A DNA stretch of 64,000 bases from Ostreococcus lucimarinus. Taxonomy: Eukaryota. The stretch is taken from the NCBI GenBank assembly GCA_000092065.1, contig CP000584.1, one strand, 5' to 3'. Of the stretch, positions 11,743 to 52,684 are shown in pieces. Below the pieces are notes generated by a model. The model worked only from the letters and a program-made list of their open reading frames with translations, was not told where the DNA came from and did no database searches. Both the position numbers and the translations under genes were made by a program. How positions within the stretch are numbered: position 1 is the first letter of the stretch; every line of letters begins with the position of its first letter.

Positions 11743-12648
11743 CTACGACGACGACGACACGCCGAGGGCGCGACACACCTTGAGCGGCGCGTTGACGAAA
11801 TTCCTACCCGTCGTCGCGTTCAACACGATGGTGTACACCATGTGGAGAATCAGTGTGTAGCTGAACGAGTTGACGAGGATGAAAAATAACGCCGTGGCCC
11901 ACACCCAGCCGATCGTCGGCGCGAACGTCGCCCCCACGTTCGCCGCGAATTGATCGAGCAGAGAGTACATCTGCGTGACGAGCAACTTCATCACGTTTTC
12001 GCGATACAGGAGCGACGAAATCGAGAGCGAGGCTAAAATCCCGAACGTTCGCGTCAGCGCGCTCGCTGGCACGGTGACCCACCAGCTCGAACCCGACGAC
12101 CAGAGCGAACTCAGCACGTACGCCAAGACGCCGTGCAGAAAGAAATAATTCAACGCTCGCAGCGGCCCGCTGATCATCAACAACAACAGCGAGGCGACGA
12201 CGAGTGTTCGCATCGCCGCCGCGCGCCCCGACCTCGCGCACGCGATCACCACGGGCAGTGGAAATAACGCTCCGAAATACGCATCAAAGCGAAACAGTGA
12301 AGATATGTGGAACGCCAACCCAGTCATCGCCGCGAGCATCGCGGCTTCGACGAGCACGCGCGGCGGCAAGCCCGGCGCCGCCGCGCTCGCGCCGTCTCCG
12401 ACCGCCCTCGTCGCGTTCGTCCCGCTTCCTCGCGCGCGCACCGCGCGCGCGCGCGCCTTCTCGCACAGCGTCGCGCGCGCCCTCGTCGCGTCGCGTCCTC
12501 GCGCGCGCGTCTCCACGCGCGCGCGCGTCTCCGCGCGCGCGCGCGGCGACGCGTGCGCGCGCACCGCGCCGCGCGTCGACCGCACCGCGCGTCCCGAGGT
12601 CGACGCCGACGTCGAGACGACCGTCCCGCAGCGCGCGAGCGCCTCCAT
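11743..12648 (-). CDS. organelle-targeted polytopic membrane protein (DUF2232/YybS-like)
   Basis: ATG at 12648..12646 (MEALARCG). An Arg/Ala/Thr-rich presequence of about 95 aa is followed by several hydrophobic helices (LVEAAMLAAMTGLAFHISSLF..., TLVVASLLLLMISGPL..., IGWVWATALFFILVNSFSYTLILHMVYTIVL). Confidence 0.5.
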   Translation of the reverse strand: MEALARCGTVVSTSASTSGRAVRSTRGAVRAHASPRARAETRARVETRARGRDATRARATLCEKARARAVRARGSGTNATRAVGDGASAAAPGLPPRVLVEAAMLAAMTGLAFHISSLFRFDAYFGALFPLPVVIACARSGRAAAMRTLVVASLLLLMISGPLRALNYFFLHGVLAYVLSSLWSSGSSWWVTVPASALTRTFGILASLSISSLLYRENVMKLLVTQMYSLLDQFAANVGATFAPTIGWVWATALFFILVNSFSYTLILHMVYTIVLNATTGRNFVNAPLKVCRALGVSSSS

Positions 12649-12801
12649 CGCGCGCGTCGTCGTCTGCGCGCGCGCGAGGACGCGCGCGACGACGCCGCGA
12701 CGCGCGTGATCCGTGTTTATAGCGAGTCTCGATACTTGGACATCGCCGACGGCGCGCCTCGGTCCGTCTCTTTGCGACGCGTCAGTCGATTAATAGCACA
12801 G

Positions 12802-13713
12802 ATGAGGTGCGGGCGCGAGCGAAATGTCGTGGGAATATTTACGCGTCGTCGTCGTCGCGCGCGTGCGGCGTGAAGCGTCGCGCGCGTCGTGCGGAGGGGC
12901 GACGATGCGCCGCGCGCGCGAAACCCTACTCGATCGCTCGAGACCGACGAAGCCGACGTCGCGCGCGCGATGCGACGACCCGCGGCCGCGCGCGCGGCGC
13001 TCGATCGATGCGCGCGATGATTGTTCACCGACTGACGACGAATGCACGCTCGTTCACGCGCGCGCAGCAAGCTCAACACCGATACCCTCAAGGAAGGCGT
13101 CACGTTCCTCTTGGAAAAGTCCAAGGAGAAGCCGCGCAAGTTCGTGGAGACGATTGAACTTCAAATTGGTTTGAAGAACTATGATCCGCAAAAGGACAAG
13201 CGTTTCAACGGCACCGTCTCGTTGCCGGTGATTCCGCGCCCGAAGCTCAAGATGTGCATCTTGGGCGACGCCAAGCACTGCGAAGAGGCGACCGGGAACG
13301 GCATCGACTCGATGGACGTCGAGGCGTTGAAGAAGCTCAACAAGAACAAGAAGCTCATCAAGAAGCTCGCGAAGAAGTACCAACACTTCTTGGCGTCGGA
13401 GTCTGTGATTAAGCAAATTCCTCGTCTCCTTGGTCCGGGTTTGAACAAGGCCGGTAAGTTCCCGACGCTCGCCACTCACAACGAGCCGCTCGAGAACAAG
13501 ATCAACGACGTCAAGTCCCAAGTCAAGTTCCAGCTTAAGAAGGTTCTTTGCTTGGCTGTCGCCGTCGGTCACGTCGAAATGACGGAGAAGGAGTTGTTTA
13601 TCAACATCCAAATGTCCGTCAACTTCTTGGTCTCTTTGTTGAAGAAGAACTGGCAAAACGTCAAGTCTTTGTACATCAAGACCACGATGGGCCCGCCCTT
13701 CCGCTTGTTCTAA
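12802..13713 (+). CDS. RPL10A: 60S ribosomal protein L10a (uL1); spliced join(12802..12806,13068..13713)
   Basis: Exon 2 is track ORF 13042..13713 from codon [11 protein letters not shown]. It is near-identical to eukaryotic L10a ([70 protein letters not shown]). The first exon is the 5 nt ATGAG at 12802-12806, followed by donor GTGCGG. Branch GACTGAC at 13030-13036. Acceptor CAG at 13065-13067. Spliced product is [10 protein letters not shown]..., 216 aa, the expected length. Confidence 0.8.
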
Positions 13714-13743
13714 GCGACCACTTCCGATGAAGCATCATCCCTG

Positions 13744-13767
13744 AAGTCGCGCGTTTACGCGCGACTT
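13744..13767 (+). other. perfect 10-bp stem / 4-nt loop hairpin in the RPL10A 3' UTR (aagtcgcgcg-ttta-cgcgcgactt)
   Basis: Read directly. Inverted repeat begins 31 nt after the RPL10A stop (13711-13713). Ten Watson-Crick pairs with a TTTA loop. Confidence 0.5.
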
Positions 13768-14018
13768 TAGCGTACACCAAGTCACCGCAGCCACACTTGA
13801 GCCCCACTGGGACCATGCCCAGTGAAACGGCGTAGCTACGGGAGTCGTTGGTAGCTGCTTAACCGCAGCGACGCTTGCTTTGTCTGTTTTAATCAAACTT
13901 CGTCTGGCAACTTGCCAGTCGTTGTGACGACGCGAAGAGACTAAAATACTACATAAACAACGTTGTTATGAAACACCAATCTCGTAATGACACACTCTAC
14001 TTACTACGCTAGACGAAG

Positions 14019-15122
14019 CTAAAATCCTGGGATGCCCAATTCGTGCGCGAAGCCGCCCTTGATGGCGGCGGCGACGACGACGAGCACGCCCGAGTTCCAC
14101 ATCGAGTGAATTAACATCGGGGTGAGTAAATTGCGAGTTCGCGCATAGCTAAAGCCTAAAACCATCCCCAAGACGACGAGTTCGACGAAATCTCGCGGCG
14201 CGAAGTGCGCGAGCCCGAACAAAACGCTGCTAAAGAGCACTGCGCCGGGCGTCGGCAACCACTTCGTGAGCGACGCGAGGATGAAGCCTCGAAAGACGAC
14301 CTCTTCGAGCAACGGCGCCAACACGCTCGTCACCGTCAACACAGCGAGAAGAGTGCCGTTGTTATCGCTTGAAATCAATGGCAGCACGCCATCAATCGTG
14401 CCCACTTGCTCAGACGCCTTCTCGATCGCTTGTTGACCCCCCTGCGCCTTCTCCGCCACGTCGAGCACAAATCCCGTCGCCGCGAGCGCTAAAAACGTCG
14501 TCCCATATCCGATCAATCCGTACTTGGCCCATCCCCGCTCGCGTTCGAACGGATCGCTAAAATCAAACTTAAACCAGTCCTTGGACTCATCTTTTACCAC
14601 ATCCATGTGCGGGGACACGAGCGCGTACACCAAGCTCAAACTCACCACCGTCTCCGCGCACTGCACCGCGAGCAAGTACTCGGCTTGCGCGTTCGCGTCC
14701 ATCTTCGCCGGATCCACCCCCAACTGCGCCATCGCGAGCGGAAACGCGATCGCCGCGACACCGATGAACGACACACCCCACGCCACGATCCCGAGCGCCA
14801 CCGTTCCGCCGCCCCACGGCACGTCCCAGCGTTCGCGATAGTCGTCGAGCGTCGACGTCGCCTTTCCCGCGCCTCGCGTCGACGACACCACCCGCGCGCG
14901 CGCGCGCGCCGCCTCGAGCGACGACCGCGACGGCGCGGCGTCGACCGCGACGACCGCGCGCTCCGTCTTCGTCTCCGCGCGTTCATCCTCGTCATCGCGC
15001 GCGCGCAGCACCACGACGCATCGACGCAACGTCGTCGTCGCTTTATCCACCGCTCGCGCGCGACGCGTCGCGCGCGCGCGCGGCGCGACGCGCGCGACGC
15101 CGACGCGCGCGACGTTCGTCAT
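14019..15122 (-). CDS. CPBP-family (CAAX prenyl protease-like, Abi/PF02517) intramembrane metalloprotease with plastid-type transit peptide
   Basis: Minus ORF 14019..15146. The track start is GTG; the ATG is 15122..15120 (MTNVARVGV). Motifs EEVVFRGFILASL, FSSVLFGLAHF and HSMWNSGVLVV match the EExxxR / FxxxH / HxxxN signature. Ser/Thr/Arg-rich presequence. Confidence 0.7.
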   Translation of the reverse strand: MTNVARVGVARVAPRARATRRARAVDKATTTLRRCVVVLRARDDEDERAETKTERAVVAVDAAPSRSSLEAARARARVVSSTRGAGKATSTLDDYRERWDVPWGGGTVALGIVAWGVSFIGVAAIAFPLAMAQLGVDPAKMDANAQAEYLLAVQCAETVVSLSLVYALVSPHMDVVKDESKDWFKFDFSDPFERERGWAKYGLIGYGTTFLALAATGFVLDVAEKAQGGQQAIEKASEQVGTIDGVLPLISSDNNGTLLAVLTVTSVLAPLLEEVVFRGFILASLTKWLPTPGAVLFSSVLFGLAHFAPRDFVELVVLGMVLGFSYARTRNLLTPMLIHSMWNSGVLVVVAAAIKGGFAHELGIPGF

Positions 15123-15187
15123 CGTCGACGCTCGCACGAGCGACATCGTCGTCCACGCGCCGTCGTCGGCGCGGAGTGTCGCGGCAG

Positions 15188-19719: not shown

Positions 19720-20325
19720 TCATGTAATGCTACCACTCGCTAGTACTTCACCTGCACCTGCGTTGAAAGTACGCGTCAGTACGAGTTCAATCGAATCCCC
19801 GCACAAAAAAAATGGCGTCGACGGATGATTTTCGTTTGCTGCAGACAAATGCCTCTTTTATCGATCATGTGCTGTCGAAACAGCGCTTGCAGTCGCGAAG
19901 ACCGCGAGGTCGCAAGCTGTCAGATTCGTCATCTAATATTTTCGTCATCATCGCAAACATCATCCGTCCGTACGCGTTCAAAACAAAAACAAATGTCGCT
20001 TCGCCGCCGCAAAGACGTCGTCGTGACGACCCCGCCTCGCGCGTCGTCGAAGAATATCAATGTCCCTACTCACCCAAGGTGCGCAATCAGGTGAAGAATA
20101 TTGACACTCTGACACTGTGAGAGGTTTCGCGATCGCGTCCGTCGCGGGCAGAAAATCTTCTCGTCGGCGTGCGTTCAGAATCGATACCGTTCTTCAATGA
20201 CGCGCTCAGAAGCAGAACTGGCGTGTTTGCAGGTATTTATCATCGCGACGCAGCGTCGACGTCCCGCGCGCGTCGCGTCCCGCGCGCGCCTTCGTTCGCA
20301 TCGCGTCGCGTCGCATCACCCGCAC

Positions 20326-20360
20326 GCACCGCACCGCACCGCACCGCACCGCACCGCACC
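20326..20360. repeat. (GCACC)7 pentanucleotide microsatellite
   Basis: Read directly (gcaccgcaccgcacc...). Lies in the GC-rich region upstream of, or within the presequence-coding part of, lipoyl synthase. Confidence 0.8.
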
Positions 20361-20609
20361 CCGCGCGCGCCGTCGTCGCGTCGCGCGTCGCCTCGCCGGC
20401 GGCGGCATCGTCGACCGCGCGTTCGCGCCCTCGACGCCGCCGCGCGCGCGCGCGCGCGACGCGCGCACCGATTCACCGCGCGCGCGTCGCGCGTCGCGCG
20501 TCGCGTCGTCGCGCGCGCTCGAATCGGCGCGTCGTCGCGCGCGCGCGCGCGCGTCGGCGTCTGACGTCAAACCCTCGCGCGCGACGACGCGGCGCGCGCG
20601 ACGGCGGCG

Positions 20610-31800: not shown

Positions 31801-34282
31801 CAAGGCGCAGAGCGCAAAGGAGGCGAGCGCACTCAAGTCAGAGTGCGCCAAGCTCAAGGCGCAAGTGGCTGATGCGGCGAAAGCGGTTGACGCCAAGCTC
31901 GCCAAGTCCGTCAAGGAAGCTGAAGATAAGGTTGCGCAATACTCAAAGTTAGAGTCCGAGATGAAAAGCGTTCGCGCCGAACTCGAACGCGCCAAGGGCG
32001 AGACCAAGGCGGCGGAGGAACGTGCGGCGAAGGCTGTGAAGGATGTCGAAGACAATCACACAAAGTGGAGAGACGCGCAAAGTCTATACGAAAACGAAGT
32101 TGCAGCTCGAAAGGCTGACGCGGAGAAGATTTCGGCCGCGGAAAGTGCGAAGGCTTCGATTGAGAAGGCTTTAGATGTAGCGAAAGATGCGGCAGCGAAG
32201 GCGGAGCGCGAGCTCGCCGCGTCGCAGGCCAAGGTGACTGCCGAGAAGAACGCACTGGAGGCAGCGAAACGCGATGCCGAATCCAAGTTATCAGACGCTA
32301 GCGAACAGAACAAACGCTTGCATGACATGCTCGAAAAATCGAAGACTGATTCGGCAGGCGATGCCGCGGCGGGCGAAGGCGAGGTGTTGCGCTATTTGCG
32401 CCAAGAGCGCGACGCCGCTCTTGCGCAGGTCACTACGCTCACAACTGAACGTAACAAGTGGCAGCGCGACGCTGAAGTAGCCATGCAAGAAGCCGCGAGC
32501 GCGAAGGAGCGCGTGAAGTCGAGCGAAGCTAGCGCCATGGGAGAAGAGAAGCACAAATCGCTCATGAAGAAAGTGGAGCAACTCAATGCGATAGAGCAAT
32601 CAAACAGCGCGCTTCGAGCAGAGATTGACGCGGCCAAAGCTGATATTGCGGCGGCGAAGTCGCGCGAGAGCGAACTTGGAGCAACTCATGAAGCTACCAA
32701 GACCGAACTCGCCGAAGCAAAGGCTGCAGTCGCGGCACATGATACTGAGATGGAAACGGTACGTAAGGAAGCCAAGCACTGGGAACAACGCGCGTCGCTC
32801 CTCGTCGGCAAATATGGCGACGTCGAAACCGATGAGCAAGGACAAAGCAAATCGCAGATGGAAGAGGCGCTCGCCGAAGCGCAGGCGGAGCTCAAGGCTG
32901 AAAGCGCTCGCGCGGAGAAGGCTAAGTCGCAGTTGGCTATAAGCATGAAGCACATTCGCGTGTACAATCCAGACAAGATCGCCCTTCCCGAGTGGCAGAA
33001 GAAGCAAAAGGAGCAAAGCGAGCGCCTCGCCGAGCTCGAAGCGGCGACAAAGGCTGCGATTTCGCAGAAAAAAGACGAGTCTGATGTTGTCGCACAGCTT
33101 GCTACTGCGAAGAAAGAACTCGATGCGGCGAATGAAAAGGTGAAATCGGCAACGGAAAAGGCGGAGCGCGCCGAGAAGGCTTTGGGCGAGACGACGGCTG
33201 AAGTCGAAAAATTGCGCGAAAACATTAAGAAGCTCGAAGAAGAAGTCGCGAAGACCGTTTCAGCTCCAACCGAACCCGTGTCCAAACAAGAAGAAGCCGA
33301 AGACGCTGAAGAAGGGGAAACTGCTGCCGCACCACCCACGCCCACGTCGGATCGATTCAAGGTCATGGCTCAGAAGATGCAGGCGGAGGCGATGGAAGCC
33401 GCGAAGAAACTTCGAGAGACGGAAGATATGCTCAAGGTGAAAGAGCAGGAACTCGCTGCCGCGCTTAATGATCGAACAGTCGCGTCGGAGAAATGCGCGT
33501 CTCTTCAGAAAGAACTCGATGGTGCGCGTGAAAAACTCAAGCTCGCCGACCAGCTGCGCTCTGCGCTCGAGGCGAAACTTGCGGGCGTGAAGACTCAACA
33601 GAGCGCGCCGCTGACGCAAGCCACCACACCACTCGCCGAGTTGGCGTCAAAAGCGAAGGATTTTGTCCCAACTACAAAGCCACCGGCGGCTCCGGTGCCG
33701 TTCGCGGTCAAAACCGAGGCGAAGAAGGCGCCCGACGACGCCGCGGAGGAGAAGCAAAGACTTCAAGCGCAAATGGACGCGCTCCGCAAAGAGCTCGACG
33801 AAAAGAAAGCCGCCGCCTCTTTGGGCACGAAACGTAAAGTCGACGATGTAGATGTCGCGCAAACAGATGAAGCGCCGACGAAGACGCGCAAAACTGACGC
33901 CGATAGTACTCCCGCGCCCGTCGCCGAAGCACCGGTCGCCGAGACGCCAGTCGTCGAAGTCGAGGCCGCCGCCGCCGCCGATGACGATGACGGGGACGAC
34001 GACGACGATAATGACGGCGACGACGACGCCGAAGAAGGCGAACTCGAAGACGTCGATGATTTCGTCGAGCAGCTGCTCGTCGACGATCCATCCACCGCCG
34101 AAGCCGACGACTCGCCCGCGGGCAAATCAAAATCCGCGCGCGACGCCCCCGGCGCCGACCGTCGCTCGCGCGGTCGAGCCTCGGGCGGTCGCACTCCCGG
34201 CGGCCGCCGACCGCAGAGCAACCGCCAGCGCAATCGCAGCGCCGGTCGAGGCGGGCGAGGCGGGCGAGGGAAGAAGAATTAG
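28898..34282 (+). CDS. TPR: nuclear pore basket protein TPR / Mlp1 / NUA (1794 aa coiled-coil)
   Basis: ATG at 28898. Continuous heptad-rich sequence. Two blocks are near-identical to the TPR/MLP1/2 domain of human TPR: [58 protein letters not shown] (vs LTELYNAYVETQDQL...[28 protein letters not shown]) and [21 protein letters not shown] (vs [20 protein letters not shown]). Acidic [16 protein letters not shown] tract and C-terminal RGG/NLS-like tail as in TPR. Confidence 0.85.
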   Translation: [1794 protein letters not shown]

Positions 34283-39982: not shown

Positions 39983-40437
39983 GCCGGCGCGGCGATGTGC
40001 GGCGCGCGCGACGGCAGAACGACGCGCGCGAGCGCATGCGCGCGAGCGAGCGCGCACGACGCGCGAGGTCGCTGTACAGGCAGTTGTTCAGGGCGAGCGC
40101 GAGGCTGCCGACGGTGCGCGATCGCGCGAGAGACGCGGATAAAGTGACGCGCGACGGGACGTTGACGCACGGCGGCGAGGACGCGAGGACGCGAGGACGC
40201 GAGGACGCGACGACGCGGGACTGACGCGCGACGCGGACGCGCAGGACAATCGCACGGCGTACGTGCGCGCGAAAGCGCGAGCGGAGTACGAGAAGCACGC
40301 GAGCGCGGAGGGGGAGACGCTGGAGGAGGCGCTGCGGTTGGCGGCGGCGCAGGTGGACAACGTCGAGGCGTCGGCGGCGCATTTGACGAAGGTTTTCTCG
40401 GACGAGCGCGTGCACGCGCGGGTTTGAGACGAACGTG

Positions 40438-42320: not shown

Positions 42321-42604
42321 GCGCGAGGGCGCGCGTCGCGTCGGCGCGTGACGCGCGCGACGTCGCGCGCGAATGCGCCAATGCGCGCGCGCCGACGACA
42401 TTCGTCGACGCGCGACGACGCGCGCGGGCGACGCGCGCGCGCGATGTTTCGCGCGTTCGAACGTGCGTCGGCGACCGCGGGCGCGACGCGCGAGACGCGG
42501 GCGCGACGCGCGAGAACCGCAGCGAGACGCGCGCGAAGGCGCGAGACGCGCGACGCGCGCGACGACTGACGACGACACGATTCGCAGCGCCGAACGCGCG
42601 CAGG

Positions 42605-51731: not shown

Positions 51732-52684
51732 ATGGCGCGGAATCAAGAGAAGGCGAATGTGCGTCGATCGGCGGGCGCGCGCGGCGGGCGCGACGCGCGC
51801 GCGAGCGCGCGCGCGACGCGCGCGACTTAGGTTGAAGGCGCGAACGAACGAACGAACGACTGACGACGACGACGACGACGACGACGCGCGCGCAGGGGAT
51901 GTTTAACAAGTGGACGAGCGGGAAACAAGACGCGCTGCGCGGATCGGTGTCGCGCTCGCGGCCGTTTCACACGCACGCGGCGAAAGACCTGAACGAGGCG
52001 GATCGGTGGCGGAGCGACGTGCTGCGCGACGTCGGAAGAAAAGTGATGGAGATTCAGAACGCTGGTTTAGGGGAACATAAGATTCGAGACTTGAACGATG
52101 AGATAAATCAGTTGTTGAAGGAGAAGTGGCAGTGGGAGATGCGAATCATCGAGCTCGGGGGGCCGAATTACATCGCGTCGGCGCCGAAGGTGGAGGACGC
52201 CGACGGCGGCGCGGTGCAACCGCCGGGGACGGCGGGCGATAGGAAGGCGTACAAATACTTCGGTGCGGCGAAGAATTTACCGGGAGTGAAGGAATTGTTC
52301 GAGGCGCCCGTGACGAAGGCGGTGCGTCGAACGCGACACCAGATGAACCTACACATCGATAGCGGATATTACGGCTTCCGGGACGAGGAGGACGGCGTGT
52401 TGCTCAAAGACGAAGCTGAAGCCGAGCAGCAGCTGCAAGCGGCGGCGATCGAGCAGTACGAGACGGAACAAAAACTACGTGAGCTCGAAGGCGGCGGTGG
52501 TACGCGCAAAAAGGCGAGCACCGTCGCGGACGCGGGCCGACAATTCGTCGCGCACGTGCCGCTCGTGGACGAGGCCGATATCGAGCGAGAAGTGCTGAAC
52601 CGCAAAAAGCAGGAACTGTTGGCCAAGTACGTCAGCGAGGATCTTCAGGCGCAGGAGGCGAGCGCAAAGACGATGCTGCATTGA
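51732..52684 (+). CDS. ISY1: pre-mRNA-splicing factor ISY1; spliced join(51732..51758,51896..52684)
   Basis: Exon 2 is track ORF 51899..52684. It carries strong ISY1 identity (VMEIQNAGLGEHKIRDLNDEINQLLKEKWQWEMRIIELGGPNY, KYFGAAKNLPGVKELFE, QFVAHVPLVDEADIEREVLNRKKQELLAKYVSEDLQAQ). The universally conserved N-terminus MARNxEKAN is encoded separately by ATGGCGCGGAATCAAGAGAAGGCGAAT at 51732-51758. Donor GTGCGT. Branch GACTGAC at 51858-51864. Acceptor CAG at 51893-51895. 137-nt phase-0 intron. Confidence 0.75.

Follow-up and report, generated by a model that had tools for sequence, protein, structure and literature searches.

Where does the gene for ribosomal protein L10a (uL1) begin in Ostreococcus lucimarinus? 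In the stretch of 64,000 nucleotides analysed here (the window), the open reading frame that carries the body of this protein runs from 13042 to 13713 on the plus strand and encodes 223 amino acids, starting with MHARSRAR. A preliminary description of the locus proposed a different beginning, in which a first coding exon of five nucleotides, ATGAG, is separated from the rest of the gene by a 261-nt GT-AG intron. The data now available come from transcript-derived contigs, protein comparison and related genomes, and they make it close to certain that the locus as a whole is best explained as the gene for cytosolic large-subunit uL1 (L10a) with a 5-nt coding exon and a 261-nt intron.

Gene layout, protein identity and transcript evidence

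Direct reading places ATGAG at 12802-12806, GTGCGG at 12807-12812, GACTGAC at 13030-13036 (within the extended motif GACTGACG, 13030-13037) and the acceptor CAG, which forms the 3' end of the RPL10A intron, at 13065-13067. All coordinates given for these signals in the preliminary description were thereby confirmed; the 31 nt quoted there for GACTGAC is the distance measured from the end of the motif, and the branch A itself (13035) lies 32 nt from the 3' splice site. Joining 12806 to 13068 produces a 651-nt coding sequence for a 216-aa uL1/L10a protein that starts with MSKL and ends with FRLF. The gene has this one intron only, and its features are as follows:

12649-12774 (no strand assigned): divergent intergenic region and putative promoter, between the ATG of the DUF2232-like gene (12648, minus strand) and the first cDNA-supported base of RPL10A
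12775-12801 (plus strand): 5' UTR, minimum supported extent, from blastn of contigs L001-L004 against the window
12802-12806 (plus strand): coding part of exon 1, ATGAG, the initiator codon and first two bases of the Ser2 codon, from the sequence, the four cDNA contigs and conservation
12807-13067 (plus strand): spliceosomal GT-AG intron, 261 nt, phase 2 in codon 2, missing from cDNA contigs L001-L004
12807-12813, 13030-13037 and 13065-13067 (plus strand): donor GTGCGGG, branch motif GACTGACG with branch A at 13035, and acceptor CAG
13042-13067 (plus strand): spurious N-terminal extension of the naive 223-aa ORF, MHARSRAR plus the AG of a Ser codon, from the ORF list; not conserved
13068-13713 (plus strand): coding part of exon 2, from the third Ser2 base to the stop codon TAA, from translation, Pfam and identity to XP_001417269.1
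13714-13992 (plus strand): 3' UTR of about 279 nt with the poly(A) site at about 13991-13992, to which L001-L003 are collinear (13991/13992)

The G+C content is 70% in the intron and 52% in exon 2, compared with 61% in the whole window. The naive ORF is in frame with the protein because the AG of the acceptor duplicates the exon-1 AG of the Ser codon (AG/C; here and below, a slash marks a splice junction).

The spliced product is identical over all 216 residues to XP_001417269.1 (ABO95562.1; UniRef100_A4RW63, UniProt A4RW63), which is named 'Ribosomal protein L10a, component of cytosolic 80S ribosome and 60S large subunit' and comes from Ostreococcus lucimarinus CCE9901. This residue-for-residue identity bears out the canonical 216-aa L10a start that had been predicted from splicing. 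Pfam Ribosomal_L1 (PF00687) matches residues 21-211 at profile positions 3-198 of 198, with E=2.1e-50 and 171.5 bits against a cutoff of 32.2. The product also has the MSKL N-terminus and the length of about 216-217 aa that characterize eukaryotic L10a; the same start is found at 216 aa in homologues P0024-P0032, P0094, P0103, P0121 and P0126, and at 216-217 aa in homologues from transcriptomes and annotated genomes. Since an MSKLN start at 216 aa is possible solely by splicing ATGAG to 13068, the reference annotation holds the model in substance, the two having the same product in a comparison made by protein and not by deposited exon coordinates. At the DNA level, an environmental Ostreococcus contig of 932 kb (L008) matches 5.46 kb of the window at 99.78% identity, and this match and the identical L10a protein suggest that the source is O. 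lucimarinus CCE9901 or a nearly identical strain. The neighbouring ORFs of the window also have exact counterparts in the protein collection, none of them under a CCE9901 accession.

Four short cDNA-derived contigs of 944-1049 nt (L001-L004) also encode exactly these 216 residues without interruption; three of them stem from JGI samples 3300026403, 3300028106 and 3300026495, and the fourth from the Logan assembly of run ERR5050154. The JGI contigs are taken as cDNA from their own features, namely the absent intron and the poly(A) on L002 and L003, rather than from sample metadata. In blastn searches, each of the four aligns to the window in two blocks, 127xx-12806 and 13066/68-1399x, at 99.7-99.9% identity, and the two-base overlap between blocks (13066 versus 13068) is the repeated AG. 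Across the junction they read CACAGATGAG/CAAGCTCAAC or, in longer form, ...TTAATAGCACAGATGAG/CAAGCTCAACACC. Junction evidence across 12806/13068, proposed at the outset as the way to check the model, is thus present in four cDNA-derived contigs, which join the five-nucleotide first coding exon to exon 2 exactly as described; none of the four begins unspliced at 13042 or brings in another exon upstream.

The same contigs delimit the transcript. Collinearity with the genome begins at 12775, 12778, 12785 and 12788, the last of these in L004, which carries Illumina adapters on both flanks and whose insert directly abuts the adapter. This gives a 5' UTR of 14-27 nt at minimum and a complete first exon of only about 20-35 nt, with the transcription start located only to within about 15 nt. 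At the other end, L002 and L003 reach 13992 and continue into AAAA that is absent from the genome, which indicates poly(A) tails. The 5' ends of L001 (1-93), L002 (1-83) and L003 (1-43) do not match the window; these extra ends are mutually unrelated, join the RPL10A leader at 12775, 12785 and 12778, respectively, and are probably assembly chimeras.

Two other readings of the 5' end have to be weighed against these data. The uninterrupted ORF 13042-13713 could mean that RPL10A is intron-less and is translated from the ATG at 13042 into a 223-aa protein, which is the form that prokaryote-style callers report: the window's own 223-aa sequence is found on 3 Logan/ENA contigs, P0004, the 223-aa form of a near-identical environmental strain, is found on 518 contigs, and the representative of the 90% identity cluster is likewise a 223-aa sequence. 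However, 12807-13067 is missing from the four cDNA contigs, all of which begin upstream of 12789, and the transcriptome-derived and annotated homologues have the shorter MSKL form. Furthermore, the extension is not conserved. Reading into the intron yields MYARSRAR, VR, VTPSCAR, LWRVR, MDSIAFRSR, LRRN, MCSLQSH and MPFPH in orthologues, an in-frame ATG is absent in P0011 (VR..), P0019 (VTPSCAR..) and P0020 (LWRVR..), and the ORF of the P0005 lineage cannot extend to the SKL codons. Because these extensions all differ and several have no ATG, a conserved unspliced start is excluded, in agreement with the initial impression that the N-terminus of the ORF is unlike conserved L10a. An intron-less RPL10A is scarcely credible on this evidence.

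The acceptor at 13067 could also be real but served by a main donor or a first exon elsewhere, for instance by GTGCG at 12553, 12863 or 12889 or by an upstream non-coding exon. Other GTGCG sites do occur within 515 nt upstream of the acceptor, and L001-L003 do carry 43-93 nt of 5' sequence from outside the window. Yet the donors at 12553, 12863 and 12889 are used by none of the cDNA contigs (0/4), all of which read ...CACAGATGAG/CAAGC; no in-frame ATG precedes these sites, and 12553 lies inside the divergent gene. The extra 5' ends differ from each other and diverge at different positions (12775, 12778, 12785), which fits chimeras rather than a shared exon, and in L004 only adapter lies beyond the first matching base. 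The chance that the main donor or first exon lies elsewhere is in our view negligible.

As such, the 223-aa ORF is an artefact of prokaryote-style gene calling that is common in metagenome protein catalogues. The preliminary description had expected most gene finders to miss so short an exon; prokaryote-style metagenome callers indeed missed it, whereas the eukaryotic reference annotation found it. In the P0003/P0004 cluster, metagenome catalogues hold mostly wrong L10a forms, either of 223 to 241 aa with an intron-translated N-terminus or truncated to 200-204 aa, and the correct 216-aa form is limited to eukaryotic annotation and transcript-derived contigs. The start-codon-proximal intron of RPL10A and its product are already known, being annotated, transcript-supported and part of a well-described pattern, and the locus is mainly a quality-control case for mis-called N-termini of picoeukaryote ribosomal proteins in metagenome catalogues. 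Wherever prokaryotic callers are run on picoeukaryote contigs, the same error is to be expected for ribosomal protein genes.

Splice signals in the window and in related algae

EST-confirmed introns of O. lucimarinus outside chromosome 2 have an unusual 5' splice-site consensus, GTGCGTG, and contain ACTGAC in 87% and the extended GACTGACG in 66.5% of cases (Irimia & Roy 2008, PMC2483917). Compared with this class, the RPL10A donor GTGCGGG matches at 6/7 positions, with the sole mismatch at +6, and the branch motif is an exact GACTGACG with its A 32 nt from the 3' splice site. All predicted introns of the species have a median length of 111 nt and a mean of 168 nt (SD 274); at 261 nt, the RPL10A intron is above the genome-wide median and mean and inside the wide spread. 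In every tested feature, it is an ordinary U2-type GT-AG intron of the non-chromosome-2 class. Within the window, ATGAGGTGCG is expected 0.05 times and found twice, while GACTGACG has 11 copies over the two strands where base composition predicts about 2.7. The combination of donor, branch and acceptor at RPL10A is more than chance.

Related signals occur elsewhere in the window. The second exact ATGAGGTGCG is at 25036-25027 (minus strand), where 25036-24965 (minus strand) reads gggagATGAG/GTGCGCGA...GACTGACG...gacgACAG/GTGGGTC, a full set of donor, branch and acceptor that would delimit some 67 nt of intron within GC-rich sequence; it was rejected as a gene start, as no obvious conserved ORF follows the motif. 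An ATG/GTGCGCGT at 33519-33528 was likewise rejected as a start-codon intron, as it lies inside a long open reading frame. Another 5'-proximal intron candidate with signals like those of RPL10A is found at 51732-51910 (plus strand), in the gene for an Isy1-like splicing factor (Pfam Isy1, E=8.5e-41): from its ATG at 51732, an apparent 27-nt first coding exon, ATGGCGCGGAATCAAGAGAAGGCGAAT, precedes a candidate 137-nt intron at 51759-51895, predicted from GTGCGTCG, GACTGACG and GCAG. Several copies of GACTGACG combined with GTGCG donors further delimit intron-like intervals, among them 40114-40244 (plus strand), 42463-42587 (plus strand, just upstream of WD40-repeat coding sequence), 58966-58816 (minus strand) and 58727-58636 (minus strand), and the motif could act as a quick intron locator in the O. 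lucimarinus genome. Donor-like sites can also be spurious: at about 20325-20367 (minus strand), tandem GTGCG pentamers, at least 8 copies at 5-nt spacing, create many of them, upstream of a TACTGACG...GCAG signal at about 19758-19780.

The layout of the intron is shared by the relatives of O. lucimarinus. Orthologous loci with enough upstream sequence represent six Mamiellales-like lineages, namely three Ostreococcus-like, two GC-rich Micromonas-like and one AT-richer Bathycoccus-like, these labels being inferred from composition and identity. ATGAG/GT is conserved in L008, L010, L018, L012, L015, L013 and L014, and in 6/6 lineages exactly one ATGAGGT lies within 900 nt upstream of the acceptor, an outcome with a chance of about 0.05 per locus by our own rough estimate. 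The donors of these orthologues are GTGCG[GCAT] or GTACGT, summarised as ATGAG/GT[GA]CG, a CTGAC branch motif precedes the 3' splice site by 29-46 nt, the acceptors read CAG/YAAGCTC, and the introns measure 223-376 nt. The comparison with RPL10A genes of Ostreococcus and Micromonas that had been suggested thereby yields the layout ATGAG/GT...AG/YAAGCT in all six Mamiellales-like lineages.

Flanking elements and possible function of the intron

The ORF on the other side of the 5' intergenic region, 11743-12648 (minus strand), matches Pfam DUF2232 (E=1.8e-12), in keeping with the earlier description of a divergent DUF2232-like gene adjoining RPL10A; the gap from ATG to ATG is 153 nt, and 12649-12774 would serve as a short divergent promoter region. 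All Ostreococcus-like loci that were fetched have the same gene order, with a DUF2232-like gene (minus), L10a (plus) and an Rce1-like CAAX protease (minus). A motif at 12768-12781 (plus strand), CTCTTTGCGACGCG, begins in the intergenic region and extends into the 5' leader. In the form CTCTT[T/C]GCGACGCG it is conserved in three Ostreococcus lineages (the window aligned with L010 and L018), which the remaining intergenic sequence and the intron are not. Its position overlaps the 5' ends of the cDNA contigs (12775-12788); within the RPL10A promoter, it may act as an initiator or as a TOP-like element. At the 3' end, a convergent gene for an Rce1-like CAAX protease (14019-15146, minus strand) has its stop codon at 14019, only some 26 nt beyond the RPL10A poly(A) site at about 13992, and overlap between the two 3' UTRs is almost certain.

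Together, these features describe how the gene is expressed. Transcription begins some 14-27 nt, or a little more, before the ATG at 12802, and the resulting cap-proximal first exon of about 20-35 nt supplies the five coding bases ATGAG. Its 5' splice site, being so close to the cap, would be recognised with the help of the cap-binding complex. The U2-type 261-nt intron is then removed, in an apparently constitutive manner, via the donor GTGCGGG, the branch GACTGACG and the CAG acceptor, and exon 2 (13068-13992) supplies the remainder of the 216-aa frame and the 3' UTR of about 279 nt, with polyadenylation at about 13992. Intron retention would leave the ATG at 12802 at the head of a 23-codon ORF that ends at 12873 according to the ORF list, which would make the transcript non-productive; the contigs examined include none that retains the intron.

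The interior of the intron was also considered as a host for a snoRNA or other non-coding RNA. Between 12600 and 14100, Rfam (E<=1) returned no structured RNA family at threshold, the only matches being two sub-threshold bacterial sRNAs on the opposite strand, whose 20.2 and 15.7 bits fall short of the gathering scores of 50 and 153. The fold of the pre-mRNA 5' region has an MFE z-score of 0.34, with 62/100 dinucleotide shuffles folding as well. A three-lineage Ostreococcus alignment shows conservation only of the splice signals and of a CTCTTYGCGACGCG motif upstream, while the intron interior is essentially unalignable between clades. Without an Rfam family or a conserved interior block, and with a z-score of 0.34, the RNA-hosting candidate was rejected; the shuffle-like folding and unalignable interior therefore give no evidence for a structured autoregulatory element either.

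Why, then, has the intron been kept? In bacteria and archaea, L1 binds its own mRNA and thereby controls its own synthesis, and in yeast several ribosomal proteins govern the splicing of the pre-mRNAs that encode them. With these precedents, the intron might be a regulatory device, either through autoregulation of splicing by uL1 that binds an rRNA-mimicking structure, or through regulated retention that exposes the 23-codon ORF to 12873 and leads to mRNA decay. Its position has been kept in a very intron-poor genome and is found across Mamiellales and angiosperms, and introns in O. lucimarinus occur preferentially in highly expressed genes (Lanier et al. 2008, PMC2367439), both of which would suit such a role. 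Against it, the 5' region folds no better than its shuffles (z=0.34; 62/100), nothing beyond the splice signals is conserved in the interior between Ostreococcus clades, Rfam detects no family at threshold, and the examined contigs contain no intron-retaining transcript. We therefore regard a regulatory intron as improbable.

A general benefit to the expression of a highly expressed gene would be the likeliest reason for the persistence of the RPL10A intron. This view draws on the over-representation of start-codon-proximal first introns in ribosomal protein genes (Nielsen & Wernersson 2006, PMC1626468, where Yoshihama et al. 2002 is quoted for human ribosomal protein genes) and on the enrichment of introns in highly expressed O. 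lucimarinus genes noted above (PMC2367439).

Comparison with start-codon introns in green plants and beyond

The position of the intron extends to land plants. In the NCBI-annotated genes of Alnus glutinosa (L022) and of both Chenopodium quinoa homeologues (L023/L024), the start reads ATGAG/GTATG...AG/TAAGCT, with position and phase as in Ostreococcus. The angiosperm introns differ in being longer (680 nt in Alnus, about 850 nt in Chenopodium) and AT-rich (34% G+C in Alnus), they have GTATG donors, and further introns follow downstream, whereas Ostreococcus RPL10A has its single intron. On the other hand, RPL10A of Coccomyxa subellipsoidea is without an intron at that position. Judged from these genomic sequences, the ATGAG/ position is widespread but patchy in green plants, and both common ancestry and repeated insertion at a MAG/GT proto-splice site are candidate readings of the shared position. 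A bolder proposal is that this is an ancient Viridiplantae intron, common to Mamiellales and angiosperms, that outlasted the massive loss of introns in Ostreococcus since high or regulated expression of uL1 depends on cap-adjacent splicing, through intron-mediated enhancement or feedback of uL1 on the splicing of its own transcript. We consider this unlikely; if true, it would offer a compact and testable system for asking why start-codon introns persist in ribosomal protein genes.

Pycnococcus provasolii differs in the exact placement. According to the NCBI annotation, its RPL10A (L019/L020) also has a single 5' intron at the start, with the rest of the L10a coding sequence uninterrupted. Specifically, however, the first coding exon consists of ATG only, the junctions read ATG/GTACGT...TAG/TCGAAG, the introns measure 537-551 nt, and the phase is 0, as opposed to phase 2 in Ostreococcus; Ser2 is encoded by TCG and not by AGY. 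The gene neighbourhood differs as well from the DUF2232, L10a and Rce1-like order of Ostreococcus-like loci: in Pycnococcus (L019/L020, 1-569 and 1001-2202), RPL10A lies divergently beside the gene for the stalk protein uL10/P0 (Pfam Ribosomal_L10, RL10P_insert).

These observations place RPL10A next to a known class. A literature text search returned no explicit statement on start-codon introns in Ostreococcus ribosomal protein genes, and the O. lucimarinus EST paper treats ribosomal protein introns in aggregate only (PMC2367439). Like the class described in PMC1626468, the RPL10A intron is the first intron at or beside the initiator ATG of a short, lysine-rich, conserved and highly expressed ribosomal protein gene, and its first exon is almost wholly 5' UTR. 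In the strict definition of that class, the intron is in phase 0 between codons 1 and 2; the Pycnococcus orthologue fits this definition, whereas the Ostreococcus intron falls outside it, being in phase 2 within codon 2, two bases further downstream. Taken together, RPL10A adds one more well-documented start-codon-proximal intron of a ribosomal protein gene, with textbook Ostreococcus splice signals and at a position that it shares with land plants.
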